Source: an uncultured Gammaproteobacteria bacterium (GTDB taxonomy: Bacteria > Patescibacteriota > Microgenomatia > Levybacterales > UBA12049). From it: 64,000 nt of DNA. The notes beneath the pieces are model-generated. The model ran no database searches. It was not told the DNA's origin and worked only from the letters and a program-made list of their open reading frames with translations. A program made the translations under genes and the position numbers. Where the stretch lies: positions 69,625-133,624 of the forward strand of contig CAZERI010000001.1 in assembly GCA_964515545.1 (NCBI GenBank), read 5' to 3'. Below, piece after piece: positions 2,879 to 42,859 of this stretch (positions within the stretch are counted from its first letter, which is position 1; every line of letters starts with the position of its first letter).

Positions 2879-3977
2879 TAGGCATAATCAGATGAAGATA
2901 AGAAGCGTCATCTTTGAGCTTAAATACTCCTGGATTTAATGGCCCTGTCATCTCTAAGGATAACTCTGTTTGAGGAATACCTGAAAGAACATCTAAAAGG
3001 TAGCGAGCATTAAAGGCTATTTCATTTTCCTCCCCTGTTAATTTCCCTTCAACCTCAACAGTATTCTCACCAAGAGAAGGCGTCTGGGATGAGACAATCA
3101 ACTTATCTTGTTTTAAAGAGAACTTGATAATATTTGCAGCTTCCCTGGCAAAGATAGAACAGATTTTTACTGCCTTGAGGAGTTCTTCTCGATCAAAGAA
3201 AATCCGAGAATTGTGGTCTGATGGGATAATTCTCTCATAATTGGGAAATTCTGCCTCAATTAATCTTCCAATAAGAATAGTCTCCCCCATTTCAAACATC
3301 ACTTGATTACTTCCTTTAGCAACATGGATGAGGACATCTGTTGTGTCGTCTCGAATAGAAAGAATTTCTCTCACGACACGAGCTGGAATAATAATGGTCT
3401 CCTCGTCTTTAGCTGTTGTCTCACTTCCTGAGACAAGGTGATGTTTTAAAGAAAGACGATAGCCATCAGTACCTACTAACAAAAACCCATTGCCTTCCTT
3501 TTTCACTAAAATTCCTGAGAGAGCTGGACGGGAGGTATCAGTGCTAGCAGAAAAAACTACCATTGAAGCATCTTTTTTAAGGTCTGTAAAATTAACTTTA
3601 GCGATTGTTTCCCCTTTTTCCTCATAGAGCTTAGGGTAGTCTGAGGCAGGAATTGTCTGGAACGAACTCTTGGTCTTTTTACTCTCAATAGTAACAGCAT
3701 TGTCTGTTGTGGTAAGTGTTATTTTTTCATTAGGCAGTGAATTAATTAGTTCAGAAAACGTTTTTGCAGGAATCGTGGTAGCTCCTTCTTCTTCTATCTC
3801 AGCTGCAATCTGCGTCTGAATTCCAATCTCCAAGTCAGTACTGCTAATTCGTAAGATACCATTACGTGCTTCTATAAGAATATTTAATAGAATAGGGAGA
3901 TCTGTTCTGGAAGAGATAGCATGATTGAGGTAACTTATTTTTTTTTGGAGATTTTCTGAAAGAACTGTTACCTTCAT
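2862..3977 (-). CDS. dnaN: DNA polymerase III beta subunit (sliding clamp)
   Basis: Typical clamp N-terminus MKVTVLSENLQKKISYLNHAISSR...LPILLNILIEA. 371 aa, downstream of dnaA on the same strand. Confidence 0.9.
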   Translation of the reverse strand: MKVTVLSENLQKKISYLNHAISSRTDLPILLNILIEARNGILRISSTDLEIGIQTQIAAEIEEEGATTIPAKTFSELINSLPNEKITLTTTDNAVTIESKKTKSSFQTIPASDYPKLYEEKGETIAKVNFTDLKKDASMVVFSASTDTSRPALSGILVKKEGNGFLLVGTDGYRLSLKHHLVSGSETTAKDEETIIIPARVVREILSIRDDTTDVLIHVAKGSNQVMFEMGETILIGRLIEAEFPNYERIIPSDHNSRIFFDREELLKAVKICSIFAREAANIIKFSLKQDKLIVSSQTPSLGENTVEVEGKLTGEENEIAFNARYLLDVLSGIPQTELSLEMTGPLNPGVFKLKDDASYLHLIMPIRVQQ

Positions 3978-4228: not shown

Positions 4229-5608
4229 TTACCCAACAAATGCTTTAGTTATCCCCATGATATCATCAACAATTTTAGCCTTGTTTTCCACAAGACCTTC
4301 TATCTTTTCCACACCATGCATAATGGTAGTATGATCACGTCCTCCTAAGAGATTGCCTATTTCAACATAGGTGAGGCCTAGCTGCTCTTTGAGAAGATAC
4401 ATCGCTACCTGTCGGGCTTTAACAAGGCTTGCGTCACGTTTTGGTCCTTTGAGTTGAGTTGCTTTCACTCCATAGAACTCACAGACACTCTTAACTACAT
4501 CTTCAGCGTGGATATGCGAAGTCCTCTCTTCGCGCATAATCCCTAGAGCTTTTTCTGCTAGATCGAGATTGATCTCTCCCCCTGTGGTAGTAGCTTGGGT
4601 AATAACGCGAAGTAACAACCCCTCAAGGCTCCGTGTATCCTCTACTCTCTCTGCCAGAAGTGTGGCGACTTCAATTGGTAGGCTATAACCAAATTTCTCA
4701 GCTTTCATTTGGAGGATTGCAGTCTTTAGCTCAACATCAGGCTTCTCGATATCGACAGTTAATCCTCCAGCAAAGCGGGAAGAAAGACGCTTTTCCAACT
4801 TCTTTATCTCATGGGGCGGGCGATCTGAGGAGAGGCAGATTTGCGCATGGTTATCAATAAGGATATTAAATGTATGAAATAATTCTTCTTGGACTTTCTC
4901 CTTACCTTCAATAAACTGGATATCGTCAATAATAAGAAGAATTGCGGAGCGAAATCTCTTCTTCATTTGAGCGGTTGAATTAGTACGGATTGCCTCAACT
5001 ACTTCGTTAGTAAATTCTTCACTCGTAATATAGATGATCTTTTTATCAGGAGCTTGGAGATAGACTTGGTTAGCGATTGCATGCATGAGATGTGTCTTGC
5101 CTACTCCAACTGGTCCATAGAGAAAAAGGGGGTTATAAAATGTGCCGATATGCTTAGCCACTGTCGAGGCAGCTGTGAAAGCAAGCTGGTTACTGCCTGA
5201 GACAGCAAAAGTAGCAAAGGTGTACTCGGGACGGACTCGGGGAAGGTGTCCGATAGCAAGGGGCTGTGACTTAATTTTTTCTGGCTCAGCTGTGATTTCC
5301 TTTTTCTCATGAGAATCTGCAAAGAGAGGACTTTCTTCATCCTTAGATTCTTGTTTTATAGCTTTAACGATAAAGACTATTTCATTATCTCGTTTAGTGT
5401 TCTTGTCTAACAGGAGCTTTATATCAGCCTTAAAGCGTTTTTGGAGTAAGTCTGCGATCATAAGAGAAGGAGTGGCGATGGTTGCAATATTGTCATCAAG
5501 CGAAAGGAGTGCAGTACTTTTAAAAAACATGACAAAATTGCCTGTTGAGACCTTCTTTTTAATTTCTGAGAGTACGGCATTCCAAGTAGCTGTTAATTCT
5601 TTATCCAT
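4229..5608 (-). CDS. dnaA: chromosomal replication initiator protein DnaA
   Basis: Walker A GPVGVGKTHLMHAI, AAA+ domain, C-terminal DnaA DNA-binding signature (LTYVEIGNLLGGRDHTTIMHGVEKIE). Confidence 0.95.
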   Translation of the reverse strand: MDKELTATWNAVLSEIKKKVSTGNFVMFFKSTALLSLDDNIATIATPSLMIADLLQKRFKADIKLLLDKNTKRDNEIVFIVKAIKQESKDEESPLFADSHEKKEITAEPEKIKSQPLAIGHLPRVRPEYTFATFAVSGSNQLAFTAASTVAKHIGTFYNPLFLYGPVGVGKTHLMHAIANQVYLQAPDKKIIYITSEEFTNEVVEAIRTNSTAQMKKRFRSAILLIIDDIQFIEGKEKVQEELFHTFNILIDNHAQICLSSDRPPHEIKKLEKRLSSRFAGGLTVDIEKPDVELKTAILQMKAEKFGYSLPIEVATLLAERVEDTRSLEGLLLRVITQATTTGGEINLDLAEKALGIMREERTSHIHAEDVVKSVCEFYGVKATQLKGPKRDASLVKARQVAMYLLKEQLGLTYVEIGNLLGGRDHTTIMHGVEKIEGLVENKAKIVDDIMGITKAFVG

Positions 5609-5680
5609 AATTATTGTGATAGAAACCCTAAAGCAGAGATCTGTAGAGACCGGAAAGGCAGATAGTAGTCAGTCTACTCA

Positions 5681-5689
5681 TGTGGATAA
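5681..5689. promoter_or_regulatory. perfect DnaA box (TGTGGATAA = reverse complement of TTATCCACA) in the dnaA-rpmH intergenic region
   Basis: Exact 9-mer match read directly. Lies 72 bp upstream of the dnaA start codon on the other strand. Confidence 0.55.
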
Positions 5690-5766
5690 CTCCTGTCAAG
5701 ATGATCTTTTTATATCGGCTGACCCGCCTTCCCAAATGAGGATAAAACTGATATAATGTCTCCAGT

Positions 5767-5901
5767 ATGGAAAAATTTGCTACTCTTAAAAAAGTAAAAC
5801 GTCAAAGGAAACACGGTTTCTTGTCCCTTATGAAGTCTCATGGGGGGCGCAAAGTAATTGAGCGTCGACGTGCAAAAGGTCGTAAGAGTCTTACTATCTA
5901 A
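5767..5901 (+). CDS. rpmH: 50S ribosomal protein L34 (44 aa; not in the ORF track because it is under 60 aa)
   Basis: [44 protein letters not shown], a clear L34 signature. TATAAT at 5752-5757. Confidence 0.85.
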
Positions 5902-5906
5902 TTATC

Positions 5907-6236
5907 ATGCTTCCCTCAGCCTATCGTCTCCCTCATGGAAAGAGGATATCTTCCAGATTTACTTTTAGAAGTCCCATTTTTCTCCTTAAGATTGCTTCAA
6001 ATACTCAGGAGAATTCCCGTTTTGGAATTATCATTAGTAAAAAGATAGACAAGAGAGCCGTGAGGCGTAACCGTATGCGACGTTTGTTGCAGCAGTTTAT
6101 TCAAGAGCATATAGCTCTTTTTCCTAAATCATCAGACTATCTTTTTATTGTAACTACTGCTTTTGAAGATCTTCCAGACAGTATCGAGTCTGAACTGGAA
6201 CGATATTTTAAACATACCCATGAAAAGAATAGCTGA
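5907..6236 (+). CDS. rnpA: ribonuclease P protein component
   Basis: Basic protein with the RnpA motif (RLLQQFIQEH... IISKKIDKRAVRRNRMRR), immediately downstream of rpmH. Confidence 0.85.
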   Translation: MLPSAYRLPHGKRISSRFTFRSPIFLLKIASNTQENSRFGIIISKKIDKRAVRRNRMRRLLQQFIQEHIALFPKSSDYLFIVTTAFEDLPDSIESELERYFKHTHEKNS

Positions 6237-6432
6237 TTTACTCATCCGTTTTTATCAGGTTATCATCTCCCCTCTTCTTCTCCAAGTCTTGGGAGTTCCA
6301 AGTATTTGCCGGTTTGAGGAGAATTGTTCTTCCTATGCCCGAAGAGTTATTAAAGAGTATGGTATACTATACGGACTAATGCTGACAGTAAAGCGACTTG
6401 TCGCCTGTCAGCCTTTTATTCATTATGGGTAG
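6220..6432 (+). CDS. yidD: membrane protein insertion efficiency factor YidD
   Basis: ISPLL...CRFEENCSSYA...ACQPFIHYG conserved Cys pattern. The ATG at 6220 is preferred over the TTG at 6163. Confidence 0.8.
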   Translation: MKRIADLLIRFYQVIISPLLLQVLGVPSICRFEENCSSYARRVIKEYGILYGLMLTVKRLVACQPFIHYG

Positions 6433-7279
6433 TATTTTTACAACACTTCTTGTTCAGCCGATTACCAACCTGCTTGTCGTGATCTATCAGCTGTTAGTGT
6501 ATCTCCATATTCCTTCTCCATTTGGCTTCTCGATTATTCTGCTGACCATGGTTATTAGACTGGCACTCTTCCCTCTTATGGCAACCCAGTTAAAGTCCTC
6601 AAAAAAAATGCAAGAAATAGCCCCGGAGCTAAGTGCGTTGAAGGTAAAATATAAAGGTGATACTCAGCGTCAGCAAGCAGAGACGATGGCTCTTTATAAA
6701 AAGTATGGTATTAACCCAGCAGCAGGATGTCTTCCTGTTCTTATTCAGCTCCCAATTATCTGGGGTTTATATTCTGTTTTGCAAGAAGCTGTTAAGCAGA
6801 CCACTGTTGGCGGTATTAATCATCTTATCTATACTGATTCATTAAAGCTTTCTCAGATGTGGGATACTCATTTCTTTGGAATTCCCCTTGGTAAAACCCC
6901 CTCTCAATTATTAGGGACTGTAGGAGTTCTCATTTTGATACTTCCTCTCTTAACAGCGGTTACTCAATTTATCCAATCCAAGATGATGCTGCCAGCTGCT
7001 GCTCCTAAGGCCCCAACTCAAAAGAAATCAGATACGATGACTGATTTTGCTAGTGCTTTCCAGACTCAGTCTCTCTATATCTTTCCTCTTATGATCGGTT
7101 TCTTCTCCTTTCAGTTCCCATCAGGTCTCTCCTTCTACTGGATTACTTTCACTGTTTTTGGTATCATACAGCAGTATTTAATGCAGAGAGGTTCAGCTCC
7201 CCTGGAGCCTGCTTCTCCGCTTGCATTACCGAAGTCATCAACTAAAAAGAGAAAGGCTAAGAAATTACATGGCAAGTAA
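6398..7279 (+). CDS. yidC: membrane protein insertase YidC (short form)
   Basis: LYKKYGINPAAGCLPVLIQLPIIWGLY core YidC/Oxa1 motif. Multi-TM with a basic C-terminal tail. Confidence 0.85.
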   Translation: MSPVSLLFIMGSIFTTLLVQPITNLLVVIYQLLVYLHIPSPFGFSIILLTMVIRLALFPLMATQLKSSKKMQEIAPELSALKVKYKGDTQRQQAETMALYKKYGINPAAGCLPVLIQLPIIWGLYSVLQEAVKQTTVGGINHLIYTDSLKLSQMWDTHFFGIPLGKTPSQLLGTVGVLILILPLLTAVTQFIQSKMMLPAAAPKAPTQKKSDTMTDFASAFQTQSLYIFPLMIGFFSFQFPSGLSFYWITFTVFGIIQQYLMQRGSAPLEPASPLALPKSSTKKRKAKKLHGK

Positions 7280-7733: not shown

Positions 7734-9105
7734 CCCAACGCGTACCCTCTTCTATCTTTTCTTATTTAGTATTTCTTCTCAGTTTGGCCGTCACTTCTGG
7801 CCAGCCTTTAGTAGTCTAAATGGATTACGAGTAGATTACCTCTCCCCCACTCTCTACTTTTCAGATATCATTATAGTCCTTCTCTTTATTGAAATGCTCC
7901 CTGTTATTGTGCGGACTGTTCCCCTCTGGAAATTAGGTATTAGTACAGCACTTCTTATCGCCTTTGGGTATCTTTCCTTTCTATCGGTCTCTCCTCTTAA
8001 TAGTCTGGTTGGTGTTCTACGATTATGTGAAATAGTAGGTATGAGTTTTGTCTGTGCCCGTTTTTTTAGTAAACAGGCTCTGATATCTTCTATCCGATTT
8101 TTGATCTCCTCTTCAGTAATACTTATAAGTCTGTTGGCTATCTGGCAATTTCTCAATCAGAGCTCTGTTGGAGGCTTATGGTATTACTTAGGGGAAAGAA
8201 GTTTTACTTCACTTACCCCCGGTATAGCCAATGCTTCGCTAAACGGGACACTTATTCTCCGTCCTTATGCAACCTTTCCTCACCCTAATGTCCTGGCAGG
8301 ATTTATGGTAGTAATGAGCATTTACCTTCTCTATTTTATTCCTCAGGGCATGGAGGTCCGGTATAGAAGATGGCTAAGTATCATTGCCCTTTTTCTAGGA
8401 ATGGTGACAACCTTACTAACCATGAGCAGGACAGGGATAGTTGTTTTAGCCTTTGTGTATGTGGTGTGGTTAATAAAAAAAGCTTTCTCCCGAAAAATCC
8501 TTTTCAGCCTAGTGATAGCCTCAATTATTGGAATAGCGGGATTTCTTTTTCAGACCGGCATTTATCTTCGGTTTACTGCTCTTAGTTTTTCAGACGAGGC
8601 AATTACATTGCGAGAATTTTTACTCATAAGAGCATGGGAGCTCTTTCATTCGCATATGCTAACAGGAGTCGGGCTACAAAATTTTCTTCCGGCACTTGCT
8701 CTCCTTCTTCCTCAGGCTACTCCGCTTATGTATTTCCAGCCTGTCCACTCTGTCTATTTTCTGTTGTTGAGTGAGACAGGTTTGGTAGGAAGTTCCCTGG
8801 TGCTTCTTTTCTTGTTTTATCTTATGTGGCGTATTCTCACTTCTTCTCAAAAGCTAGGGAAAACAGTACTCCTTTTTTCACTCCTTCTCCTTTTTTTGAC
8901 TGATCATTATTTTTATACACTCCATCAAGGACAACTACTTCTCTCATTTTCTCTCGGTTTATTATTAGCTCAGACATCACCTTTCACAAGACAAGAAGCG
9001 AAAAATTTGAGAAAAGACACAGGACACAGGAAGGCGAAAAAAAGCTTGAGCCATCGGCCTGTGAAAATTTCCCGAAATGGTAAATCAAGCGTGAAAAGAA
9101 AATAA
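7636..9105 (+). CDS. O-antigen ligase-like (Wzy_C superfamily) polytopic membrane protein; start uncertain (GTG 7636, ATG 7660 or ATG 7894)
   Basis: At least 10 TM helices. Wzy_C signature HSHMLTGVGLQNF ... HSVYFLLLSETGLVGS. Basic C-terminal tail. Confidence 0.65.
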   Translation: MLSIWSFRMMTKLPPNQWVKEKIGSWLSNLATSPTRTLFYLFLFSISSQFGRHFWPAFSSLNGLRVDYLSPTLYFSDIIIVLLFIEMLPVIVRTVPLWKLGISTALLIAFGYLSFLSVSPLNSLVGVLRLCEIVGMSFVCARFFSKQALISSIRFLISSSVILISLLAIWQFLNQSSVGGLWYYLGERSFTSLTPGIANASLNGTLILRPYATFPHPNVLAGFMVVMSIYLLYFIPQGMEVRYRRWLSIIALFLGMVTTLLTMSRTGIVVLAFVYVVWLIKKAFSRKILFSLVIASIIGIAGFLFQTGIYLRFTALSFSDEAITLREFLLIRAWELFHSHMLTGVGLQNFLPALALLLPQATPLMYFQPVHSVYFLLLSETGLVGSSLVLLFLFYLMWRILTSSQKLGKTVLLFSLLLLFLTDHYFYTLHQGQLLLSFSLGLLLAQTSPFTRQEAKNLRKDTGHRKAKKSLSHRPVKISRNGKSSVKRK

Positions 9106-15209: not shown

Positions 15210-16168
15210 GACAGGAAGCTTTTGAATAATTGTATATTCTCAGGACTCCCCATAGCCACAGGGAGTTGTTGGTGAACATGTTCGGGGAGTATCTCAAGGG
15301 CAGGAAGGTTATTGGCAAGTGCAATACCTCCTGCTTGCTCTAGGACAAAGGAAAGAGGATTAATCTCATACATGAGACGGAGTTTACCTTGGGGATTTCT
15401 TTTACTTTGGGGGTGGAGAAAGATGCCTCCCTGCAGGAGAATGCGATGGATTTCCGCTATCATAGCTCCATAATACCTAAGTTTATAAGGTCTTTTAGAG
15501 TCGGGATCTTCTTCTTTAATGTAGGTAAGGAATTTTCTCGTCTGTTCATTATAGGAATTATACTCACCTTCATTGATACTATAAGAAGCCTTAAAGGATG
15601 GAATTCTGATATCTGGATGAGAGAGGAGAAATGCACCGATTTGAGGATCTAGTGTGAAGCCATTTACTCCATTTCCCGAGGTATAGACAAACATAACGCT
15701 TGCCCCATAAAAAATGTATCCACTGGCAACTTGATCGGAACCTTTCTGGAGGAGTGATCCCTTATTGTGATAAATAGAGAAAATAGTACCAATAGGAGCG
15801 TTAATATCTATATTGGAGGATCCATCTAGAGGGTCAAAAAAAACAGCATATGGAGCCTCTTTATCCAAGACAAGGGGTTCACTGAGCTCTTCAGAGCCAA
15901 TTGTGGACACAACATGAGATTCTTTGAGGACTTGGATAAGCAGGTTATTGCTAAATACATCAATTTTTTTAACTTCGTCTTGGAATGTGTTACGTTCTCC
16001 CGTAACTCCTAAAATATCAATAAGCCCTGCTTGCCGGACATGACTGGCTATAATCTTCCCTGCATATTCAAGAGATGCCATAAGAAGAGAGAAATCCCCA
16101 TGAGCACGGGGGTGATTCTTTTCCTGTCTTAAGATAAACTCTGTAAGATTAAGCGGTCTGGTTGACAT
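15206..16168 (-). CDS. fbp: fructose-1,6-bisphosphatase class 1
   Basis: FDPLDGSSNIDINAPIGTIFSIY metal-binding motif. ATGA overlap with pgk. Confidence 0.85.
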   Translation of the reverse strand: MSTRPLNLTEFILRQEKNHPRAHGDFSLLMASLEYAGKIIASHVRQAGLIDILGVTGERNTFQDEVKKIDVFSNNLLIQVLKESHVVSTIGSEELSEPLVLDKEAPYAVFFDPLDGSSNIDINAPIGTIFSIYHNKGSLLQKGSDQVASGYIFYGASVMFVYTSGNGVNGFTLDPQIGAFLLSHPDIRIPSFKASYSINEGEYNSYNEQTRKFLTYIKEEDPDSKRPYKLRYYGAMIAEIHRILLQGGIFLHPQSKRNPQGKLRLMYEINPLSFVLEQAGGIALANNLPALEILPEHVHQQLPVAMGSPENIQLFKSFLS

Positions 16169-17492
16169 AGGTGTCTATAGTCTTTACTGTTGAGAAAATC
16201 TGCAATTTTTGAAAAATAGTTGTAAGCTGATCTGAAAGCTTGGCAATTATTGGATCTTTCTCTTCTTGAGAGAGATTCCAAAGTTTTTGTTTAAAGGGTC
16301 CCAAAGCTTTTTTACGCGTCTTATACAAAAATTGTTCTTCCGTCCAATCGGGATCTCTCTCTTTCTGAAGGTTCTCTTGAATCCAATTATACATACTTTC
16401 TTTTAGTAATTGTGGCATAGTTTCATAGACGATATTTTGAAGGCCAGTTGCCAGATGAATTTCCAGGGTATCATTATCAACAAAATGATCAAAATCAGAG
16501 AGGGGAAGAGTAGATGCTCCATGCTGGACAGCTCCTCCTAATTGGTATTCTTTGCGTGCATGGGTACTAATCTCTTTCAGGACAGAGAAATCTAATTGGA
16601 CTTGCTGAATTGTCCCATTTGGTAGTGGTGTCCCCCCGTGAGTAGAGCCTGTTTGGACGCTAACTTTTGTAATTCCATTAGTAGAGATATGTGCTTGGTA
16701 GCCTTTCATAAATGCATCAAAGTCTGCTACTGTACTATTTTTTCCACCAATATGGCCGATTTCACCACCGATTGAGATGGTTACTCCTTCTGGTTCGTGC
16801 TCCCTGATATAGGTGGTTAAAAGAGCAGTCATTTCACTGTTAAGTTGCTGCTGAGAAGCGAGCGTATTTTGGCTAAGATCAACCAGTGTCGATGCATCAA
16901 TATCAATATTATAAAATTTCGCTTTAATAGACTCATCAATGAGTGACTTAATTCGTTGTATCTCTTGTTCTTTATCGATACTAAATTTGTTTTTACTGAA
17001 TTGATAGTGATCTCCTTGGAGAAATACTGGACCCTGATATCCTTCCTTGATGGCTGCAGCCAGAACTGCTACAGCAAACTGCTGTGGTCGTTGATTGGTA
17101 TATTCAATTTCTGAACGTGCGATTTCAAAAATAACACTTCCTATCTCGTATTTCTGCATAATCCGGAAAATAAGTCGTGCGGTGTCATAGGTTAAAGCTC
17201 GAATATTGACAGCAGGTACGGTAAAGCCCTTAATATCACCTTTACCAAATGCTTGATAGAGTGAGTAAATAGAAGTTGAAGCACAGTTGGTTAATTCAGA
17301 GAGGCTGTAAATCAATCCAGTACAAGCTGCTGTAAGAGTCGGATCGGTGGCAAATTCTGCAGTATAGATAAGATCATCGATAAGACTTTCCCTAAGTTTA
17401 TCCTGATTTAACAAAGTTGGAGCGGAGATATCACTGAGAATTCCTTCCGATGCTACTTCTAGGTCAGTGAATGAAGGTAAAACTCGTCCCAT
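16149..17492 (-). CDS. fba: class II fructose-bisphosphate aldolase, long form with N- and C-terminal extensions. The ORF runs to 17648; start 17492 is preferred because it removes an 80-nt divergent overlap
   Basis: Alignment by eye to E. coli FbaA: TVPAVN / VFLQGDHY / ISIGGEIGHIGG / TGSTHGG / AVQHGAST, matching the Zn-binding His motifs. Confidence 0.65.
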   Translation of the reverse strand: MGRVLPSFTDLEVASEGILSDISAPTLLNQDKLRESLIDDLIYTAEFATDPTLTAACTGLIYSLSELTNCASTSIYSLYQAFGKGDIKGFTVPAVNIRALTYDTARLIFRIMQKYEIGSVIFEIARSEIEYTNQRPQQFAVAVLAAAIKEGYQGPVFLQGDHYQFSKNKFSIDKEQEIQRIKSLIDESIKAKFYNIDIDASTLVDLSQNTLASQQQLNSEMTALLTTYIREHEPEGVTISIGGEIGHIGGKNSTVADFDAFMKGYQAHISTNGITKVSVQTGSTHGGTPLPNGTIQQVQLDFSVLKEISTHARKEYQLGGAVQHGASTLPLSDFDHFVDNDTLEIHLATGLQNIVYETMPQLLKESMYNWIQENLQKERDPDWTEEQFLYKTRKKALGPFKQKLWNLSQEEKDPIIAKLSDQLTTIFQKLQIFSTVKTIDTYVNQTA

Positions 17493-17538
17493 TGGAAAGA
17501 GTATAGCATAGCCTTTAAACTCATTTATGAAGTATTTC

Positions 17539-17567
17539 TTGCCAACGGGAGTAAAAATCTTTAGAAT
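17539..17567 (+). promoter_or_regulatory. sigma70-like promoter (TTGCCA-17-TAGAAT) with -10 ending 6 nt before ATG 17574; predicted leaderless transcript
   Basis: Hexamers and spacer counted from the sequence. Confidence 0.4.
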
Positions 17568-17573
17568 GTGGCC

Positions 17574-18878
17574 ATGGTGTATCAAGCAACTGAGAGTGCA
17601 TATCAGCTTACCTTCCGTGAGGATGATGCGAAGGCTCTTGGTGAACATTTACATAGACGCCACTCAGTGGATCTTATTGGTATGAAGAGAGTAGGAATTA
17701 GTAACTTCTTACGTTATTTTCTCTATCATAAAGATCTCAAAGAAACCTTTATTAGTCCTTCAGAAAATCACCTTCTTATCTCAGTTGATCTTAATGATCT
17801 TGTTGAGCGGGAGCTCTATGCTTTTTGGACGCTTACCTTCAAGCGTGTTATCGACAGCGTGGAAGAAGCGGACGTATCACCTGAGCTTAAGCAAAAAATC
17901 TCAACGGCTTTCCTTTCATCAATCCAGACGCAAGATTTGTTTCTGCTTCTTGATGCATTACGGAAAAGCATGGGACTTCTCGTCCAATCAGGTGTCTTAC
18001 CAACCGTGTTTTTCCTCCGTTTTGATCGCATTAAAGATGCGGTTACCCCCGAATTTGTTGATAATCTGCAGGGATTACGCGATGCGACTCATGAGAAGCT
18101 TTGTTATGTCTTTACGAGTTATAGAAGTCTCGATGTTTTGTGTCCCCAAGCATTTACAAAGGCAAGCCTTAATGCTTTCTGCCAGCTGATGTATATCCGT
18201 CCTCTCAGAGATGCAGATATGCGAATTATTATCCAAGAGTATAAAAAACGTTATGCTTTGGATATTAATGAAGACCTAGAGAGTCACCTCATAAAATTAG
18301 TAGGTGGGAATGTCCAGTATATGCAGGTAGTCCTAGTTATCCTTAGTGAACAAAAAGAAATGACACCTCTTACTAAAGAAAATCTTGAAGATATCATTAG
18401 GCAAGATGAGCGTATCTCCCTTCTAGGAGAAGAGTTATGGGAGAGTCTGAGTAGTTCAGAAAAAGAAGCCCTTGCCAAAATTGAGACCCAAGAAATCCTT
18501 ACTGACGATGAAAAAAAAGTAGCTAGTTATATCTTCGAGACTGGGATAGTAAGGGAGGGGAAGCCATTACAGGTATTCAATCCCTTATTTGCTGAATATG
18601 TGCAGGGGGTTCTTCAGCATGTCTCCCGAGAAAGGGAGCTTGTTTTTAGCAAGAAAGAGCATCTTCTTTTTACCCTTTTACAAAATCATGTGGGAGAGAT
18701 TTGTGAACGGGATTTAATTATCGAGGCAGTATGGCCTGAGTATCGGGAATTTGGAGTATCTGATTGGTCAATTGATCGTTTAGTAGCAAGAGTTCGCAGT
18801 AAACTGAAAAAGCAAGCAAGCCCTTTTGAAATTCGAACGATCCGTACGCGCGGATATATGCTCACCGAGCGAAGTTAA
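17574..18878 (+). CDS. transcriptional regulator: N-terminal degenerate P-loop/AAA-like domain plus C-terminal OmpR/PhoB-type winged-helix DNA-binding domain
   Basis: C-terminal trans_reg_C signature ICERDLIIEAVWPE...SIDRLVARVRSKLKK...IRTIRTRGYML. N-terminal GMKRVGIS (Walker-A-like without Lys). No receiver domain. Confidence 0.6.
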   Translation: MVYQATESAYQLTFREDDAKALGEHLHRRHSVDLIGMKRVGISNFLRYFLYHKDLKETFISPSENHLLISVDLNDLVERELYAFWTLTFKRVIDSVEEADVSPELKQKISTAFLSSIQTQDLFLLLDALRKSMGLLVQSGVLPTVFFLRFDRIKDAVTPEFVDNLQGLRDATHEKLCYVFTSYRSLDVLCPQAFTKASLNAFCQLMYIRPLRDADMRIIIQEYKKRYALDINEDLESHLIKLVGGNVQYMQVVLVILSEQKEMTPLTKENLEDIIRQDERISLLGEELWESLSSSEKEALAKIETQEILTDDEKKVASYIFETGIVREGKPLQVFNPLFAEYVQGVLQHVSRERELVFSKKEHLLFTLLQNHVGEICERDLIIEAVWPEYREFGVSDWSIDRLVARVRSKLKKQASPFEIRTIRTRGYMLTERS

Positions 18879-18909
18879 TTCCCGACTATCTCCCGACCTA
18901 TTCCCGAAG
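18879..18909 (+). repeat. three direct repeats (T/C)TCCCGA(C/A) starting at 18879, 18890 and 18901 (exact 11-bp phasing), occupying the -35 region of the valS promoter
   Basis: TTCCCGAC, CTCCCGAC, TTCCCGAA read from the sequence. They begin at the first nt after the regulator stop codon. Confidence 0.5.
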
Positions 18910-18920
18910 AAAGTCTGATC

Positions 18921-18929
18921 TGCTACAAT
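18921..18929 (+). promoter_or_regulatory. extended -10 element TGCTACAAT, 17 nt upstream of the valS ATG
   Basis: TGn+TACAAT. No canonical -35 (replaced by the direct repeats). Confidence 0.4.
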
Positions 18930-18946
18930 TAGCCTCAACTACTACT

Positions 18947-21184
18947 ATGGATAAAGCCTACAACTTCAAAGATAAAGAAAAAGAAATCTATACTAATTGG
19001 GAAGAAAAAGGTTATTTTAAGCCTAAGATTGATCCCAAAAAGAAGCCTTTTACCATCGTACTTCCTCCCCCCAATGCCAGTGGCAAGATGCACACAGGGA
19101 ATGTCTTAATGGTTGCGATAGAGGATCTCCTTATTAGATGGCACCGAATGAAAGGGGATCCTACTTTGTGGGTGCCAGGCACAGATCACGCGGGGACTGA
19201 GACGCAGATAACTTTTGAAAGAGAACTAAAAAAACAAGGTAAATCTCGTTTTAATTACAGCAGGGAAGAACTCTATGAAGCTATTTGGGATTTTGTCCAG
19301 AATAATAAAGGACAAATTGAGGGTCAATTACGTCAAATGGGGGCAAGTGTCGACTGGAGTCGTTATACCTTTACTCTGGACGATAAGGTTATCACTACTG
19401 TTCATAATACTTTTAAGAAGATGGTGGAGGAGGAGTTAGTCTATAGAGGCAACTATATGGTTAATTACTGCCCGAAATGCGGTACAACGTATGCAGACGT
19501 TGAATTAAAGCACGAGGAGCGGAAAGATCCCCTGTATTATATGAAGTATGGACCCTTTGTCCTCGCAACTGTCCGGCCTGAAACAAAATTTGGTGATACA
19601 GCGGTAGCAGTTAACCCCAAAGATAAACGATATAAGGAATGGGTTGGGAAAGAGATTGAATTTGATGGGTTGAATGGAATCGTAAAGCTTAAAGTAATCG
19701 CTGATGATTTCGTCGATATGGAATTTGGGACGGGAGTTGTAAAAGTAACACCCGCCCATGATAAAAACGACTATGAAGCTGGAATTAGGCATAACTTAGA
19801 AGTAAAACCAGTCATTGATCTTAATGGCAAGCTTAATGAGAAAGCAGGTCCATATGCAGGTCTCTCAGTTTTTGAGGCTCGTAAGCAAGTAGTAGCAGCT
19901 CTCAAAGAAAAAGGGCTCATGGATCATATTGATGAGCATTACGTTCATACTGTGGCTCTGTGTAAGGCAGGACATGAGATTGAACCAATGGTACTACCTA
20001 ATTGGTTTGTTAAAGTTGATGCACCCCATAAATCTTTTAAGAGACCTGCGTTAGATGCAGTCAAATCAGGGAAAGTGAAGATTTTTCCTAAATGGCAGGA
20101 GATTACGTATGTACGCTGGATGGAGGAGATGCGAGACTGGCCGATTAGTCGCCAAAATGTTTGGGGAATTCGTATTCCTGTGTGGTATTCCCTCGAGAAA
20201 AACCCCACGCTCCAGGTATCGTATCTAAAGAGTGATGGTACGAGAGTTATACGCAGTGGAGAAGAGCTAGTAAAAGAAAATGAATTTGAAGAGGCAGAAA
20301 AAGGACTCCAGAAAATTATTGCTCCAATTGAGTGTGTCCCTGAGTTTGAAAAATCATCCTCCAAGGATCATTATCTTCAAGAAACAGATACGTTTGATAC
20401 GTGGTTCTCCTCAGGACAATGGCCATTAGTTACTCTTGGTTATCCAGACTCAGAGGACTTTAAGTATTTCTACCCAACATCTGTCCTTGAGACAGGATGG
20501 GAGATTATTCGTCTCTGGGTTTCACGTATGATTATGTTTGGAATTTATCTTACAGGAGAGGCTCCATTTGAGTATGTATACCTTCATGGTATTGTACGAG
20601 CGCTTGATGGAAGAAAAATGAGTAAATCATTAGGGAATGTGATTAACCCAGAGGACTATATTAATGAATACGGTGTAGATGCACTTCGAATGGGGCTTAT
20701 CTCAGGTACAGCTAATGGGAAAGACTTTGTTTTCCCTAAAGATCGCGTAATAGCCTACAAACATTTTGGCAACAAAATTTGGAATATGGGGAGATTTATT
20801 CTTATGATGCGTGATCAATGGGGTAAAGAGGTTCCTGAGTTCGCAAAGGTAGAGAGCTCCCAGCTTAAAGATGAAGATAAAGCAGTGCTTGGAGAACTCT
20901 CTACAGTTATTAAGACAGTGGACCTAGAACTCGAAAAGTTCCGTTTTGCTGATGCATCTGAGGCAATTTATCAATTTATGTGGCATACACTTGCTGACAA
21001 GTATATTGAGCAAGTAAAAATGAGAGATGACAAAGAGGTGGCTTTAGCTGTCTTACAACATGTCTATATGACTTCTTTAAAGCTTTTGCATCCTTTTATG
21101 CCTTTTGTCACGGAGGAAATCTATCAGAAGATGCCTGGCTCGGGTGAGTCGATTATGATTGAGCCCTGGCCCACTAATAGCTGA
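18947..21184 (+). CDS. valS: valine--tRNA ligase (compact form, 745 aa)
   Basis: Class I aaRS: PPPNASGKMHTGN (HIGH-like), KMSKSLGN, ValRS-type C-terminal motif LHPFMPFVTEEIYQ. Confidence 0.8.
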   Translation: MDKAYNFKDKEKEIYTNWEEKGYFKPKIDPKKKPFTIVLPPPNASGKMHTGNVLMVAIEDLLIRWHRMKGDPTLWVPGTDHAGTETQITFERELKKQGKSRFNYSREELYEAIWDFVQNNKGQIEGQLRQMGASVDWSRYTFTLDDKVITTVHNTFKKMVEEELVYRGNYMVNYCPKCGTTYADVELKHEERKDPLYYMKYGPFVLATVRPETKFGDTAVAVNPKDKRYKEWVGKEIEFDGLNGIVKLKVIADDFVDMEFGTGVVKVTPAHDKNDYEAGIRHNLEVKPVIDLNGKLNEKAGPYAGLSVFEARKQVVAALKEKGLMDHIDEHYVHTVALCKAGHEIEPMVLPNWFVKVDAPHKSFKRPALDAVKSGKVKIFPKWQEITYVRWMEEMRDWPISRQNVWGIRIPVWYSLEKNPTLQVSYLKSDGTRVIRSGEELVKENEFEEAEKGLQKIIAPIECVPEFEKSSSKDHYLQETDTFDTWFSSGQWPLVTLGYPDSEDFKYFYPTSVLETGWEIIRLWVSRMIMFGIYLTGEAPFEYVYLHGIVRALDGRKMSKSLGNVINPEDYINEYGVDALRMGLISGTANGKDFVFPKDRVIAYKHFGNKIWNMGRFILMMRDQWGKEVPEFAKVESSQLKDEDKAVLGELSTVIKTVDLELEKFRFADASEAIYQFMWHTLADKYIEQVKMRDDKEVALAVLQHVYMTSLKLLHPFMPFVTEEIYQKMPGSGESIMIEPWPTNS

Positions 21185-21229
21185 GGGTGACAAGAAAAAT
21201 AAAATTTACTATGCTTATAGAACCCTGCT

Positions 21230-21631
21230 ATGCCTGATATTAAAAAGTATCTATCTAAATTCCCGAGGATTCCACGATTTATTACCGAATTGCCGAAAAA
21301 TAAGTGGTTTTTCTATAGTAAAATTGCTTGTTTTAGCCTCATTACGACAGTACTCTTAGTTACGATCATCCTTCGGGGGTATGAGTTATTTCAAGGCATT
21401 CAGGTACTTGAGGCAGCGACCACAAAATACGATGATATCGTAAAGGAAAGAGAGTATTGGATAGGTGTAGCTAGCCGTCACCCTGGCTATCGAGACGCTG
21501 AGTTCAAGTTAGCTGTATTGTCTTACCAATTAGGAGAGAAAGATAAGGCCAGAGAGTATTTAAATGAAGTATTAACAATCGATCCGAATTTTAAAGAAGG
21601 AAGAGAGTTTGCCAAGCAAGTAGGACTCTAA
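21230..21631 (+). CDS. membrane-anchored TPR-repeat protein
   Basis: TM helix plus TPR-like LGEKDKAREYLNEVLTIDPNF. Confidence 0.5.
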   Translation: MPDIKKYLSKFPRIPRFITELPKNKWFFYSKIACFSLITTVLLVTIILRGYELFQGIQVLEAATTKYDDIVKEREYWIGVASRHPGYRDAEFKLAVLSYQLGEKDKAREYLNEVLTIDPNFKEGREFAKQVGL

Positions 21632-21634
21632 AGA

Positions 21635-22324
21635 TTACTCAGCTTTTTCCTCAGAAGATTCTTGACTATCACTAGGTTTTTCTTCACTAGATTCACCACT
21701 TTCAGCTGCTTCACCCTCAGGTGTTTCGCCTTCAGCACCTTCTTCTGTTACTGGTTCTGGTTCTTCTTCAACAACAATTTCAGCAATCTTTGCTACGACC
21801 TGTGACTCATCAGTTAGAATAGTTACGCCTTCTGGAACAGTAAGTTCAGAAATCATAATCTGATCGTCTACCTGAGCTAGATTTTCAATATTAACTTCAA
21901 TATTTTCTGGAAGTGCCTCAGGAAGTGCTTCTACCTCTACTTCATTGAGAGTCTGGAGAAGAGTACCTACATTCTCAGTAACAGCTTTTGCTTCACCAGC
22001 GAGAACAAGAGGTACCATAGCTTTAACTTTTTCTTTCAAGTTAACCTCATAGAAGTCTACATGAAGAGGAGTACTGGATGCATAATTCATTTGGAGGTTC
22101 TTAACAAGAACGGGATGCTTTTTCTCTCCCACCATCAGGTCAATAAGGCCAGTTTCTCCTACCTCAGAAAATACTTCTTTAAAATCATTGCTTGCTACCT
22201 GGATTGATGTGGAAGCCAAGCCCTTACCATAGACATTGGCTGGAAGTTGGCCTTCACGACGGAGTTTTTTAACTTGCTTGCCAAGGACTGTGCGGGGAGT
22301 TGCGTTAAGTACTGGGTGTTTCAT
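21635..22324 (-). CDS. rplY: 50S ribosomal protein L25 / general stress protein Ctc with acidic C-terminal tail
   Basis: N-terminal L25 fold signature (RTVLGKQVKKLRREGQLPANVYGKG...). Glu-rich tail. Confidence 0.8.
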   Translation of the reverse strand: MKHPVLNATPRTVLGKQVKKLRREGQLPANVYGKGLASTSIQVASNDFKEVFSEVGETGLIDLMVGEKKHPVLVKNLQMNYASSTPLHVDFYEVNLKEKVKAMVPLVLAGEAKAVTENVGTLLQTLNEVEVEALPEALPENIEVNIENLAQVDDQIMISELTVPEGVTILTDESQVVAKIAEIVVEEEPEPVTEEGAEGETPEGEAAESGESSEEKPSDSQESSEEKAE

Positions 22325-23557: not shown

Positions 23558-24589
23558 ATGGATACAGCACTCGTTAGATCAGAATTAGATGAAAAGTCTC
23601 CTGAAGAAGAAGTAATATTTACTTCCCTTAGAGCTAGCAGTTGGCAGGAGTTTCATGGTCAAGAGGGTATCAAAAAATCCGTCAAGATCGCGATCGAAGC
23701 AGCGAAGAAGCGCAGTGAGGCATTAGAGCATGTTCTGCTGTACGGGCCTCCTGGTCTGGGAAAGACTACTCTTTCTCATATTATTGCCCGTGAAATGGGA
23801 AGCAATATTCGGGTAACATCAGGTCCTGCCATTGAAAGAGCAGGAGATTTAGCCTCAATTTTGACTAATCTAGAAAAAGGAGATGTTCTCTTTATCGATG
23901 AGATTCATCGGCTGAATAAAGTTGTCGAAGAGACTCTTTATCCAGCGATGGAGGATTACGCCTTAGACATTATTTTAGGGAAAGGGCCATCTGCGAGGAC
24001 GTTACGATTAGATCTTCCCCAATTTACGATTGTAGGCGCTACAACAAGGGTAGGGCTTATAGCAGCTCCTCTGCGGGATCGTTTTGGTGTGGTTCATAGG
24101 CTTAATTTTTACTCGCCAGAAGAATTAAGCGATATCATTAAAAAAGCTGCCAGTAAGCTTAGTGTTACGATTGATAAAGAAAGTATTCAGGAAATTGCTA
24201 TACGTGCACGTGGGACGCCACGTATTGCTCTTAAGCTCCTTAAACGAGTGAGAGACTATGCTCAGGTGCATAATGATGGGAAAGTAACTCAGAATGTCAC
24301 TACAGAGGCTCTAAGCCTTCTTGAAATTGATACGTTGGGACTAGATCCGTTGGATAAGAAATACTTACTAGCCATTATTGAAAAGCACAGTGGCGGTCCG
24401 GTGGGTATTGAGACTATTGCCTCAACCATCGCTGAGGATATCGGAACACTTGAGGATATGGTCGAGCCGTATTTGCTCCAGGTCGGCTTTCTTAAGCGGT
24501 CTCCACGAGGAAGAGTAGCTACCTCTCTTGCCTATAAGCATTTAGGTCTCGATATTCCGCCTTCATCTGATCAGCAGCCTCTACTTTAA
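23558..24589 (+). CDS. ruvB: Holliday junction DNA helicase RuvB
   Basis: [18 protein letters not shown] Walker A. AAA+. RuvB-specific C-terminal winged helix. Confidence 0.95.
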
Positions 24590-26947
24590 TCCGATTTTAA
24601 ATAACTCTTGGGTAAAAGGAAGAAGAGTAATTATTCCTTGAACAAGAAGTGTAAGAAAAATCGTGGTGAGAAAGAAAGGAGAGATTGTCCGTAATGATCT
24701 GCCCCGGATAAGAAGTGCTAGGCCAAGGTGAGAGAGAACAAGTCCATTAAAAATAATAGTTCTTGCCAGAGTTGAGCTCACTATATCTAGCAGGAGAACG
24801 TAGATCAAACCAAGGAGAAGAGCAAGTCCTAGGCCTCCACCTACTATTTTCCCTAGTCGCTTAGTGGTAATAAGAGGCAGTTTGGTATTTCGGGGTGGTT
24901 TACTCAGGACTGCGTGTGAAGTAGAATCAGTGGCAAGGCCCAGGGCAGGAAAGCCATCTGTTGCTAGATTAATCCATAAAATTTGTGTAGGGAGAAGCAC
25001 AGCAGGCAGATTTAGTATTGTTGAGAAGATAACCAGGGCAAGTTCTGAAAGATTACTCATTAACAGATAAAGAATTGCCTGGAGAATATTGTGATAAATG
25101 GTACGTCCTTCCTCAATTGCTCTCACAATAGTGTGAAAATTATCATCAGTTACGATAATATCGCTTGCTTCTTTAGCAACGTCAGTCCCCGATTCCCCCA
25201 TAGCAATTCCTACGTGAGCTTTTTTTAGGACAAGAGCGTCATTAACTCCATCTCCTGTCACTCCTACAATAAAACCTTGTTTTTCAAGAAGTGTGGCAAT
25301 ACGAAGTTTGTCTTCAGGTTCTGAACGAGCGATAATTTGGACTTTACTCAGGTCTCGAATTAATTGATCATCAGAGAGAGCTTTTAGTTCCTCTCCTGTT
25401 ATTACCTCTTGAGAGGTCTCAAGAAGGCCTATCTCTTTAGCGATAGTAAGAGCAGTCAGCTCATTGTCACCAGTTACCATAATTGTTCTAATTCCTGCTT
25501 TATGTGCTTGGCTTATAGCTAAGCTTACTTCTTCTCGAGGAGGATCATATAGTCCAGCAAAGCCAAGGAAGGTTAGTTCTCTTTCTTGCTCTTCTCTAGC
25601 AGCTTTTTGGGAGGAGAGACCACTGCGGTAGCCAAAAGCAATAACCCTTAGGCCCTCTCGAGCAAACTTCTCATATTCTTTTTCAATTTCTTGCCTTTCA
25701 TCTTTTGAGAGTATTGATCGGTTTATAATTGCTTCTGGTGCTCCTCTAACAAAAATTGAGCGTTTATTATTACCTTCCCAAACCGTTGAGATTGTTTTGG
25801 CAGTTGCATCAAAGACAAATTCATCAATAATTTTCCCTTCTTTAATAAGAGAGGGAAGTTCAGGATGATTCTCCCCAACCCAGATGAGGAGGGCTCCATC
25901 TGTACGATCACCCAGAATATCAATTTTTCCGTCTTCTTTCTTGGATATTGTTGCAGTATTTCCTAAGAGTGCAGCCTGAAGCATCTCAGTTGGAACCTTT
26001 CCATTTTTAGTCCAAATATGTTTTACCCGCATGTTATTTTGGGTGAGCGTACCTGTCTTATCAACGAGGAGAACATTAATTGCTCCTAGTGTCTCAACAG
26101 CTTGCATTTTCCTCACGATTGCCTTTTTATGAGCTAATCGATTTGTTCCAATGGCGAGAGCAATAGTGAGAACAAGAGGTAATCCTTCAGGAATTGCTGC
26201 AACTGCAATACTCACAGCAGTTAGAATAACCGTTGTCTGGGGATGTCCTTGCCAAAGCCCGATAGGAATAATAAGTGTTGCAATAGCGAGTGCAAGGAAG
26301 GTAAGGAGTTTACCTAGGTGGGAAAGCTGTCTCTCAAGAGGGGTTTTACCAACAGAAATAGTTGTCAGAGTCTGCGCAATTTGGCCAAAGCGTGTCTTAG
26401 CTCCAGTTTTCTCAATTAAAAGAGTACCATTGCCTTTAGTAACAAGGGTCCCCATAAGACAAAGTGTATTCAACTCTTTATTAACAGGCAGAGATTCCCC
26501 TGTAAATGCAGACTCATCAACTTCAAAAGTAGTGGCCTTAATCAGTTTTCCGTCTGCAGGGATCCTATCGCCCTCAGCTACGATGACTACATCTCCCGGT
26601 ACCAACTGGCTGGCAGCGATTGATTTTTCTTCATGATCACGGATAACTCGTACCTGATGGGGGGTATAGGTTACTAATGCTTGGAGTGATTTTTCTGCTT
26701 TGTATTCCTGGATAAAGCTAAAAATACCATTAAGGAGTATAGTTACAAGAATAAAGATTCCATCAATTACATCGCTAAAGAAAAATGAAAAAATTGCTGC
26801 TGCGAGCAATAAGCCATTCATGAGGGAGGGGAACTGTTGAATAAGGAGGAGAAGAGGAGTCTTGTCAGCGTGGAGGGGAAGGGTATTGGGACCTTCTTGG
26901 GAAAGACGTAGTCTCGCTTCCTCTGTTCTTAATCCAGGGGCAGTCAT
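24581..26947 (-). CDS. P-type cation-transporting ATPase (type II-like, 788 aa)
   Basis: DKTGTLTQN phosphorylation motif, VTGDGVNDA hinge motif, 8-10 TM helices. Confidence 0.9.
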
Positions 26948-41941: not shown

Positions 41942-42796
41942 ATGCCGGAACTACCAGAAGTTGAGACTATACGCAAAGGTTTGGAGAAGTATATTGTCGG
42001 TAAAGCGATCGAAGGAGTTGAGGTAAGACGTGAAAAGCTCTTTACAGGGGAGGCCCATGAGGTGATAGGAGCACAAATTGAAGCTGTCAGGCGCTTTGGG
42101 AAAGGCTTAGTCATTGATCTATCAAATGGCTATAGCATTACAGCCCATGTCAAAATGACTGGGCAGTTCGTCTATGTGGGGCAGGAGACAAAGAATCTTC
42201 ATCCTACGTTGGATATCCCGCAGAAATTACCCCATAAGCATACTCATGTTATTGTTACGCTTAGGGATGAGAGTGGAGAAAAGAGCCAGCTTTTTTATAA
42301 TGACATCAGACAGTTTGGCTGGCTGAGAGTGGTTAAGACAAGTGAAGTTAAAAATCAGCCATTCTTTAAGTCGCTTGGCCCGGAGCCTTTTTCAGATTTA
42401 ACGTTGTCGATATTCAAAAAGATCCTCTTGTCATCAAATATGCCCATCAAACCGCTTCTAATGGATCAAGCCAAAATAAGCGGTATTGGCAATATTTATG
42501 CTAATGACGCGCTGTATGCATCCTTCATCGATCCTCGGCGTAAAAGTAATAGATTGGCCGACCACGAGCAACAAAGTCTCTTTACAGCTATTCTAGAGGT
42601 CTTGGAAAGAGCTTTAACATACGGCGGAGCGAGTGAAACCAACTACATCCAGGTAGATGGCGGAAAAGGTGAGTATCAGCATCATTTTTTGGTATACGGC
42701 AAACAAGGAGAAAAGTGTATTCGCTGCGGAACTAGTATTGAGCGAATCAAACAAGGAGGCAGGAGTACGTTTTTCTGTCCCACCTGCCAAAAGTAA
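41942..42796 (+). CDS. mutM: formamidopyrimidine-DNA glycosylase (Fpg/MutM)
   Basis: N-terminal MPELPEVE (catalytic Pro2/Glu3). H2TH. C-terminal zinc finger CIRCG...CPTCQK. Confidence 0.9.
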   Translation: MPELPEVETIRKGLEKYIVGKAIEGVEVRREKLFTGEAHEVIGAQIEAVRRFGKGLVIDLSNGYSITAHVKMTGQFVYVGQETKNLHPTLDIPQKLPHKHTHVIVTLRDESGEKSQLFYNDIRQFGWLRVVKTSEVKNQPFFKSLGPEPFSDLTLSIFKKILLSSNMPIKPLLMDQAKISGIGNIYANDALYASFIDPRRKSNRLADHEQQSLFTAILEVLERALTYGGASETNYIQVDGGKGEYQHHFLVYGKQGEKCIRCGTSIERIKQGGRSTFFCPTCQK

Positions 42797-42859
42797 TTTT
42801 GTCAGGCTATTGTCTGAAAGAAAGTGGTGTGATACGATACAAGATAGACTAATTAGCCT

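Follow-up and report, generated by a model that had tools for sequence, protein, structure and literature searches.

Phased TTCCCGA arrays at valS and in the following TPR gene are candidate operators of a degenerate STAND-OmpR regulator conserved in Levybacteria

The pho box is built of 11-bp direct repeats, each with seven conserved base pairs and a 4-bp A/T-rich spacer, at the place of the −35 element, and TGACA-like half-sites are typical of the OmpR/PhoB family that reads such sites. The T-box is the usual control of aminoacyl-tRNA synthetase (aaRS) genes in many bacteria. To our knowledge, little is known of gene regulation in Patescibacteria (the Candidate Phyla Radiation, CPR). SARP domains bind direct repeats 11 or 22 bp apart which overlap a poor −35 element, and they contact RNA polymerase; 11-bp direct repeats in a 7 + 4 layout are a known binding mode of both OmpR/PhoB and SARP domains (PMC10936776). 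Here we describe a locus with this geometry in a 64,000-nt window (the whole stretch of DNA that was analyzed, about 41% G+C) of contig CAZERI010000001.1, from a bacterium of the Patescibacteria/Levybacteria with a tiny genome. A regulator gene, the valine–tRNA ligase gene valS and a gene for a TPR membrane protein follow each other on the forward strand and are accompanied by two arrays, A1 and A2, of TTCCCGA-type repeats at 11-bp phase, which together are a conserved, so far undescribed cis-regulatory module. The search of the genome itself was confined to these 64 kb. For comparison, one genome per species was taken, which gave 80 loci encoding regulator homologues of 47–87% identity; all homologues with a source name are called Patescibacteria or Levybacteria.

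The arrays are best explained as DNA-level operators of a module kept across Levybacteria that comprises the regulator, valS and the TPR membrane-protein gene. That the neighboring regulator binds them head-to-tail and modulates valS and the TPR gene from these candidate operators is a proposal which, judged from sequence, we regard as evenly balanced.

Array A1 (18879..18911, + strand) consists of three 11-bp units with the cores TTCCCGA (18879–18885), CTCCCGA (18890–18896) and TTCCCGA (18901–18907). The preliminary description of this DNA had reported three direct repeats here, and their coordinates were confirmed: TTCCCGAC (18879–18886), CTCCCGAC (18890–18897) and TTCCCGAA (18901–18908) follow each other at exactly 11-bp spacing, and the first base of A1 adjoins the stop codon of the regulator gene. 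The proximal unit begins 23 nt upstream of the −10 hexamer of valS, which belongs to the extended −10 element TGCTACAAT (18921..18929, + strand; identified from sequence, promoter scan and alignment). The gene valS (18947..21184, + strand) encodes a valine–tRNA ligase of 745 aa, a short form of the enzyme (NCBIfam PRK05729, 810 bits; TIGR00422, 801 bits). The pho-box-like geometry proposed for the repeats stood up to this analysis in its 7 + 4 layout, and the 23-nt distance is fixed in the clade of the window. As in the pho box, the arrays have the 11-bp, 7 + 4 layout, A1 of the window lies where a −35 would be, and a Trans_reg_C winged helix goes together with them; unlike in the pho box, the motif TTCCCGA is unrelated to CTGTCAT and one array (A2) lies inside a coding region. 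In SARP operators there are two repeat units and the 3′ repeat is 8 bp from the −10 element, whereas A1 has three units and a gap that measures 12 bp from the end of the 11-bp unit, or 16 bp from that of the 7-bp core. In addition, the host here is a Patescibacterium and the proposed target a housekeeping aaRS.

A1 is conserved in 35 loci, in direct orientation in 15 and inverted in 20, which bears out the alignment check of related valS upstream regions that had been proposed for it. In 30 loci, whose regulators are in part as little as 47% identical, a triple array with 11/11 spacing stands at or near the stop of the regulator gene; in many of them its first base comes right after this stop, or the array reaches into the last codons. 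The 11/11 spacing is that of the window and of every conserved array. Direct A1, inverted A1 and A2 give the same logo, 3 × (A)TT[C/A]CCGA with 4-bp spacers whose 3′ ends are mostly A/T. This is the operator-like pattern of direct repeats, one per helical turn, each a heptamer plus a 4-bp spacer. Single units (8-mer and 6-mer motifs) were not over-represented in the window, and the phased triple alone is informative. Two triple arrays at 11/11-bp spacing with a score of ≥18/21 occur in the window, as against one in 300 simulated windows (about 0.003 per window). In 670 kb of related loci scanned at a threshold of ≥17/21, arrays were confined to the A1 and A2 contexts save in L005, which has a further array in the valS–TPR interval, and in L084, which has a single match of CTGACA type. 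A chance origin of the arrays is excluded.

The presence of arrays follows that of valS. In 55 of the 80 loci (within 300 nt in 38) the regulator is followed by valS in the same orientation, and 43 of these 55 carry at least one array. In contrast, none of the 25 loci without valS after the regulator has a TTCCCGA array, the sole match being CTGACA-type. Therefore, the arrays belong to the valS/TPR control regions and not to the 3′ end of the regulator gene. Where genes have been inserted between regulator and valS, the array stays at the regulator stop, moves with valS, or does both, depending on the locus: it was kept at the regulator stop despite insertions in about eight loci, it moves with valS in L032, L034 and L151, and in L026 and L065 it is distant from the regulator stop and near the valS promoter. 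The inserted genes were considered as a possible regulon; they are variable (toxin-antitoxin pairs, NUDIX, acyl-CoA dehydrogenase-like, glycosyltransferase), so they define none. Toxin-antitoxin-like pairs between regulator and valS were seen in L052, L062, L082 (about 5310–5880, minus strand) and L021 (5355–5952); L052 and L082 then have the array twice, the second copy standing just 5′ of valS.

These positions bear on another explanation, by which the arrays would be protein roadblocks or insulators after stop codons (A1 after the regulator, A2 after valS) that mainly stop or meter read-through and do not control promoters. The start of A1 at the first base past the stop codon, or within the last codons, in many loci would fit such a function, and so would the occurrence of arrays in either orientation. 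The position of A2, beyond the start of the TPR gene, makes no effect but a roadblock-type one plausible, and neither the regulator–valS gap nor the valS–TPR gap contained an intrinsic terminator-like hairpin, in a genome with few intrinsic terminators. However, the regulator 3′ end bears no array in the 25 loci without a following valS, the array is found at the valS promoter, distant from the stop, in L026 and L065 and accompanies valS in L032, L034 and L151, and the distance to the −10 element is fixed in the clade of the window. Roadblocks are for these reasons an improbable explanation. The suggestion that the regulator controls its own read-through was likewise not favored, given that loci lacking an adjacent valS have no array at the regulator 3′ end.

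The second array, A2 (21260..21288, + strand; TTCCCGA-GGAT-TCCACGA-TTTA-TTACCGA), came from the array scan and, like the inverted arrays and the YTGACA repeats of other lineages considered below, goes beyond the preliminary description. It has the 11-bp phase of A1, lies 76 nt past the valS stop codon and occupies codons 11–20 of the TPR gene (21230..21631, + strand), which is next after valS and encodes a protein of 133 aa with a Lys-rich N-terminal tail, one predicted transmembrane (TM) helix, read from the hydrophobic stretch FFYSKIACFSLITTVLLVTIIL, and a C-terminal TPR (Pfam TPR, aa 78–125, and translation). Homologues of the TPR gene come after valS in 38–40 loci. Copies of A2 were found in 37 loci, every one on the + strand and in one and the same frame. 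The codon test was made on these 37 loci, with codon use in valS of the same loci as background. It can be seen that, first, the synonymous codons under A2 are nearly frozen: the Pro codon is CCG in 36 of 36 cases (21% in the background), the Arg codon CGA in 33 of 34 (14%) and the Thr codon ACC in 27 of 27 (15%), and codon 5 specifies eight different amino acids with a third base C in 36 of 37. Secondly, the 37 encoded decapeptides all differ. This shows that selection on A2 acts on DNA, not on the peptide.

The same data decide on the possibility that the repeats are no protein site at all, being an RNA element, a peptide motif (A2) or a chance tandem of 11-mers. Many unrelated metagenome contigs carry perfect tandem 11-mers of the form TTCCCGAnnnn, and A2 is coding and always in one frame, both of which would suit that possibility. 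Against it, the 11-bp period places the three A2 cores in three different codon phases and A1 has inverted, non-coding copies, and therefore peptide-level and RNA-level explanations are excluded; at A2 the codons are frozen while every peptide differs, and the occurrence of A1 in both orientations with one logo is by itself enough to dismiss an RNA element. A search of 17300–21700 for Rfam families, the T-box among them, gave no match at E up to 1, and RNA folding gave no structure above background (z-scores −0.7 and +0.7). Invariant cores with variable spacers are unlike slippage-type tandem repeats, and the simulated chance rate is the low one given above. We regard this explanation as effectively refuted. 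Directly after A2 inside the TPR gene, at 21290–21319, there is a promoter-like TTGCCG-18-TATAGT; it is not conserved in the A2 logo and is therefore probably a chance match. On a metagenome contig (L147), A2 stays with the TPR gene though valS is not upstream.

The regulator gene (17574..18878, + strand) runs from an ATG at 17574 to a TAA stop codon at 18876–18878, and the same 434-aa product was annotated by gene callers on four independent assemblies. Its promoter (17539..17567, + strand) is TTGCCA (17539–17544), a 17-nt spacer and TAGAAT (17562–17567), matching 10/12 in the consensus scan, and 6 nt separate the end of the −10 hexamer from the ATG. A leaderless regulator mRNA had been predicted from this arrangement; the prediction is well supported, as the layout TTGCnA-17-TAnAAT-N6-8-ATG recurs upstream of the regulator in most of the 80 related loci. 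Autoregulation through a TTCCCGA-type array was rejected, no conserved site of that type being present upstream of the regulator in these loci.

The C-terminal OmpR/PhoB-type domain of the regulator, noted earlier together with the lack of a receiver domain, was verified as Pfam Trans_reg_C (PF00486) at aa 354–430 (18633..18863, + strand) with E 1.4e-12, above the gathering score and with a winged-helix fold. PDB sequence matches to this domain include PcoR, RstA, WalR and ToxR, the C-terminus also resembles the OmpR-family DNA-binding domains of AdeR, ArlR and CssR, and the residues of the predicted recognition helix SDWSIDRLVARVRSKL are nearly invariant across the regulator family, which has more than 120 full-length members. 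Response-regulator models of NCBIfam align to no more than the last 80 residues and score far under their cut-offs; no Response_reg match was obtained, and the N-terminus folds as AAA+/STAND. Pfam gave nothing N-terminal of Trans_reg_C. In the predicted fold, aa 1–345 are a STAND/ORC-like NOD composed of a nucleotide-binding domain, a helical lid and a small winged helix, with fold matches to NLR, CED-4 and MalT. There was no BTAD (PF03704) match at E up to 5 and no match to a repeat sensor domain (TPR, WD40, LRR), the NOD running directly into the winged helix; no TM segment was found, and the model is entirely soluble alpha/beta.

The P-loop domain with a Lys-less Walker A motif that had been read from the sequence is thus a STAND fold, and the replacement is near-invariant in the 34 regulator homologues in which residue conservation was counted. 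The degenerate Walker A GMKRVGIS (aa 36–43; 17679..17702, + strand) has Ile in place of the P-loop Lys; G36, R39 and G41 are invariant and I42 and S43 at least 90% conserved. The strand FFLRFDR (aa 146–152; 18009..18029, + strand), which its position and alignment suggest to be the Walker B counterpart, retains the Asp and has Arg in place of the catalytic Glu; F146, R149, F150, D151 and R152 are invariant, and the predicted structure puts this strand at 141–148. Neither the STAND Walker A GxxxxGK[ST] nor the Walker B hhhhD[DE] was found in the regulator, and the replacements are family-wide. A homology search with the N-domain against 1.8 billion cluster representatives gave 464 relatives, among which distant ones (23–27% identity) have the same two-domain architecture, nSTAND1/AAA_35/AAA_16 + Trans_reg_C, and retain a GxGKS Walker A; an hhhhDEFD-type Walker B is present in P0224, P0238 and P0252. 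As the distant kin of the same architecture keep GxGKS and DE, the Levybacteria regulator family is, on the evidence of the alignments, a degenerate-ATPase offshoot of an uncharacterised STAND-OmpR family. In particular, P0218, P0224, P0227 and P0252 (nSTAND1/AAA_35 + Trans_reg_C) share the full-length architecture at 23–27% identity over the N-domain and differ in their intact Walker A GxGKS, with a DE Walker B in P0224 and P0252; none of the four is named or studied, and proteins of this type are likely the parent family of the regulator. Among the relatives, P0238 (642 aa) has a NOD with intact GAGKS and DEFD joined to an N-terminal Ser/Thr protein kinase, without an OmpR winged helix. In the literature nothing was found on the regulator family, on CPR promoters or leaderless mRNAs, or on transcriptional control in Patescibacteria.

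The SARP/AfsR-like architecture proposed in the preliminary description holds for the domain types and not for their order. As in AfsR and the large SARPs of Streptomyces, an OmpR-type winged helix and a STAND/NOD module are found in one polypeptide and 11-bp direct repeats accompany it. However, AfsR has the order OmpR-type DNA-binding domain, BTAD, NOD and TPR, whereas in the regulator the order is reversed, with the DNA-binding domain C-terminal and no BTAD or TPR sensor; and AfsR is able to bind ATP and to hydrolyse it, whereas throughout the regulator family the Lys of Walker A and the Glu of Walker B are replaced. A CadC-like architecture was also suggested and has to be abandoned: CadC/ToxR-like proteins have an N-terminal winged helix, a TM helix and a periplasmic sensor, and the regulator has the opposite order and no TM segment. 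Compared with PhoB, it has no receiver domain or phosphorylation site, and oligomerization would come from the STAND module. MalT and other LAL proteins differ by a LuxR-type helix-turn-helix, a large sensor and an active ATP site, the regulator having an OmpR winged helix, no sensor and a degenerate P-loop. The archaeal PF01637-type "Walker-type ATPases" (PABY2304, 2qen; SSO1545, 2fna) and Orc1/Cdc6 keep GK[ST] and are without an OmpR-type domain. By analogy, the nearest counterpart of the module would be an OmpR-type domain reading a pho box or SARP box, with STAND oligomerization as in AfsR or MalT.

Several observations point to the regulator as the protein that binds the arrays. The two are adjacent and of matching geometry, this adjacency is conserved over deep divergence, the nearly invariant recognition helix parallels the invariant motif, and the regulator is the sole OmpR-type domain detected in the window. 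From these we infer the binder, and a mechanism may be envisaged as follows. The degenerate-ATPase NOD would be a scaffold or a ligand-controlled switch that gathers several winged helices, and three of these would dock head-to-tail on three half-sites one helical turn apart, each half-site offering seven conserved base pairs and a 4-bp A/T-rich spacer in the style of the pho box. A dedicated, nucleotide-independent valS/TPR regulator of this build, acting across Levybacteria through two operators that bracket valS, is a tentative proposal and one that we put a little short of an even chance.

The arrangement at the valS promoter differs between clades. In the seven closest loci, the A1 cores and ATCTGCTACAAT are invariant and the intervening 10-nt linker varies without indels, and the offset of the proximal unit from the −10 element is the same in these seven loci of the window's clade, which points to a direct interplay with RNA polymerase. 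The 33-bp A1 would be centered near −41.5 there (assuming a transcription start about 7 nt past the −10 element), a position suited to a class-II-type contact with RNA polymerase. In other clades A1 is farther upstream, inverted or absent. The end of the inverted array is mostly 31–35 nt before the −10 element, about 10 nt upstream of the −35 position, and there the bound protein might act in a class-I-like manner. Protein bound at A2 could be a roadblock, occupy a downstream operator or be a partner of that at A1. In most relatives (L006, L017, L020, L024, L026) valS starts 7–8 nt past the −10 element (TGCTACAAT-TAGCCTC-ATG) and is leaderless; in the window and in L005, L007, L009 and L170, a 10-nt insertion (ACTACTACT-like) results in a short leader, of at most about 11 nt in the window. 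Along its length, the ValRS of 745 aa covers only positions 1–713 of the 863-position TIGR00422, and it apparently lacks the extension with which typical bacterial ValRS ends.

A number of findings weigh against the proposed regulation in this form. A consensus scan gave no canonical −35 element for valS, and none had been seen in the preliminary description, the hexamer at that position, TTCCCG, matching TTGACA in 3/6. The usual promoter of the window, however, is an extended −10 element TGCTAnAAT with no recognizable −35, 5–10 nt before the start codon (for example 11835, 16149–17492(−), 24581–26947(−), 31197, 38496 and 41942). Few genes of the window have a Shine-Dalgarno sequence, and the organism seems as a rule to express its genes from leaderless or near-leaderless mRNAs. 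Since an extended −10 without a −35 is ordinary here, the missing −35 of valS does not show that the repeats replace one, and activation cannot be inferred; the sign of regulation could be either. Moreover, at least eight lineages lack A1 and have an intergenic region of 25–40 nt with an extended −10 element only, A2 still being kept. The −35 substitution claimed in the preliminary description is weak evidence; in several relatives the valS promoter makes do with its −10 element and has no array. The assignment of the regulator as binder rests on adjacency and geometry, and beside regulators without a following valS the TTCCCGA array is missing, as described above. Finally, a different phased repeat, TTGAC-N17-(C)CTGACA-N4-CCTGACA, lies 50–100 nt upstream of the regulator ATG, before its promoter, in about 30 of the 80 loci (carriers include L008, L013, L017, L021, L027, L032–L035, L042, L051, L056, L058, L063, L064, L066, L070, L077–L080 and L084). 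It is also present in distant relatives, with four copies in L206 (282–320) and variants in L205 (CTGATA, at about 4885–4930), L208, L209, L211 and L213.

These YTGACA repeats raise the question of whether the STAND-OmpR protein reads YTGACA in autoregulation, the TTCCCGA arrays being bound by another factor and the adjacency to valS being synteny only. The 11-bp phase of the YTGACA units upstream of the regulator, their retention in distant relatives, the TGACA-like half-sites that the OmpR/PhoB family typically uses and the absence of TTCCCGA arrays beside regulators with no adjacent valS would all agree with this. However, the phased YTGACA element is absent from the whole window, including the upstream region of the regulator, and near the regulator no phased repeats other than the TTCCCGA arrays occur here. 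YTGACA has 5/6 identity to the sigma-70 −35 consensus and also precedes other genes (L021 at 688 and 1096, L025 at 2573, L078 at 406); it is perhaps an element of promoter type or a global one. In the recognition helix, residue 402 (R/S/Q/K) was examined for co-variation with YTGAYA, which was suggestive in L205 only and inconsistent in L208 and L210–L214, and no second OmpR-type gene was found in the window. Preferably, then, the regulator is taken to read the TTCCCGA arrays, and its dedication to YTGACA is considered rather unlikely. The only CTGACA-type pair in the window is TCAGACAATAGCCTGACA (12/14; 42800–42817, minus strand), in the gap between the open reading frames 41942–42796 and 42860–43567.

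If the regulator does bind the arrays, Patescibacteria would have their first defined regulator–operator pair, and A2 would clearly show how an operator can override the choice of codons, synonymous ones having stayed frozen through the history of a lineage. Comparative genomics alone has provided a testable CPR module: a protein family, a 29–33-bp operator with a sharp logo and two target genes. Control of an aaRS gene by a transcription factor is unusual; here it would replace the T-box or attenuation in organisms with leaderless mRNAs. The regulator offers a test case of a STAND/NLR-type switch that has lost its ATPase site, has its fold under strong selection and would work without hydrolysis. 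A2 is an instance of dual coding, a putative DNA-binding signal laid over a protein-coding signal, with a measurable codon-usage signature.

Two further possibilities were rejected. The ORC/Cdc6-like fold next to iteron-like repeats might indicate a replication initiator; the arrays flank a gene and not an AT-rich unwinding element, and the canonical dnaA-rnpA-yidC origin region lies at 4.2–7.3 kb with a GC-skew minimum at about 8–10 kb, not at 18–21 kb. Transposon ends or an invertible segment were dismissed because the orientation of valS is constant while A1 flips. The genes dnaA (4229–5608, minus strand), rnpA (5907–6236) and yidC (6398–7279) form a classical origin region, and cumulative GC skew has its minimum at about 8–10 kb and then rises steadily; the first 10 kb of the window probably contain the origin of the chromosome.

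Similar repeats were met outside the 80 loci. A metagenome pattern scan was dominated by perfect tandem repeats of 11-mers that are unrelated to the arrays and by Bacteroidota-like TTCCCGAAC clusters; the Levybacteria type made up 11/120 among the matches listed, a figure that says little on regulon size. One metagenome contig (L201), with no regulator, valS or TPR match, carries a Levybacteria-type array, TTCCCGAAGATTTCCCGAATTATTCCCGA (2230–2258), about 90 nt upstream of a ComM/YifB-like gene, possibly one more target. L213 has two weak TTMCCG-type triples (5911 and 6427; 17/21, borderline) within the 1.3 kb that follow a regulator homologue of 33% identity, one of them in the gap between two minus-strand genes. 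Intergenic clusters of at least five TTCCCGAAC(A/G)C-type units at 11–12-bp spacing were seen in L092 (about 8700–8830) and L108 (about 3000–3130), the latter upstream of groES-groEL; these clusters are a different repeat phenomenon that shares the heptamer.

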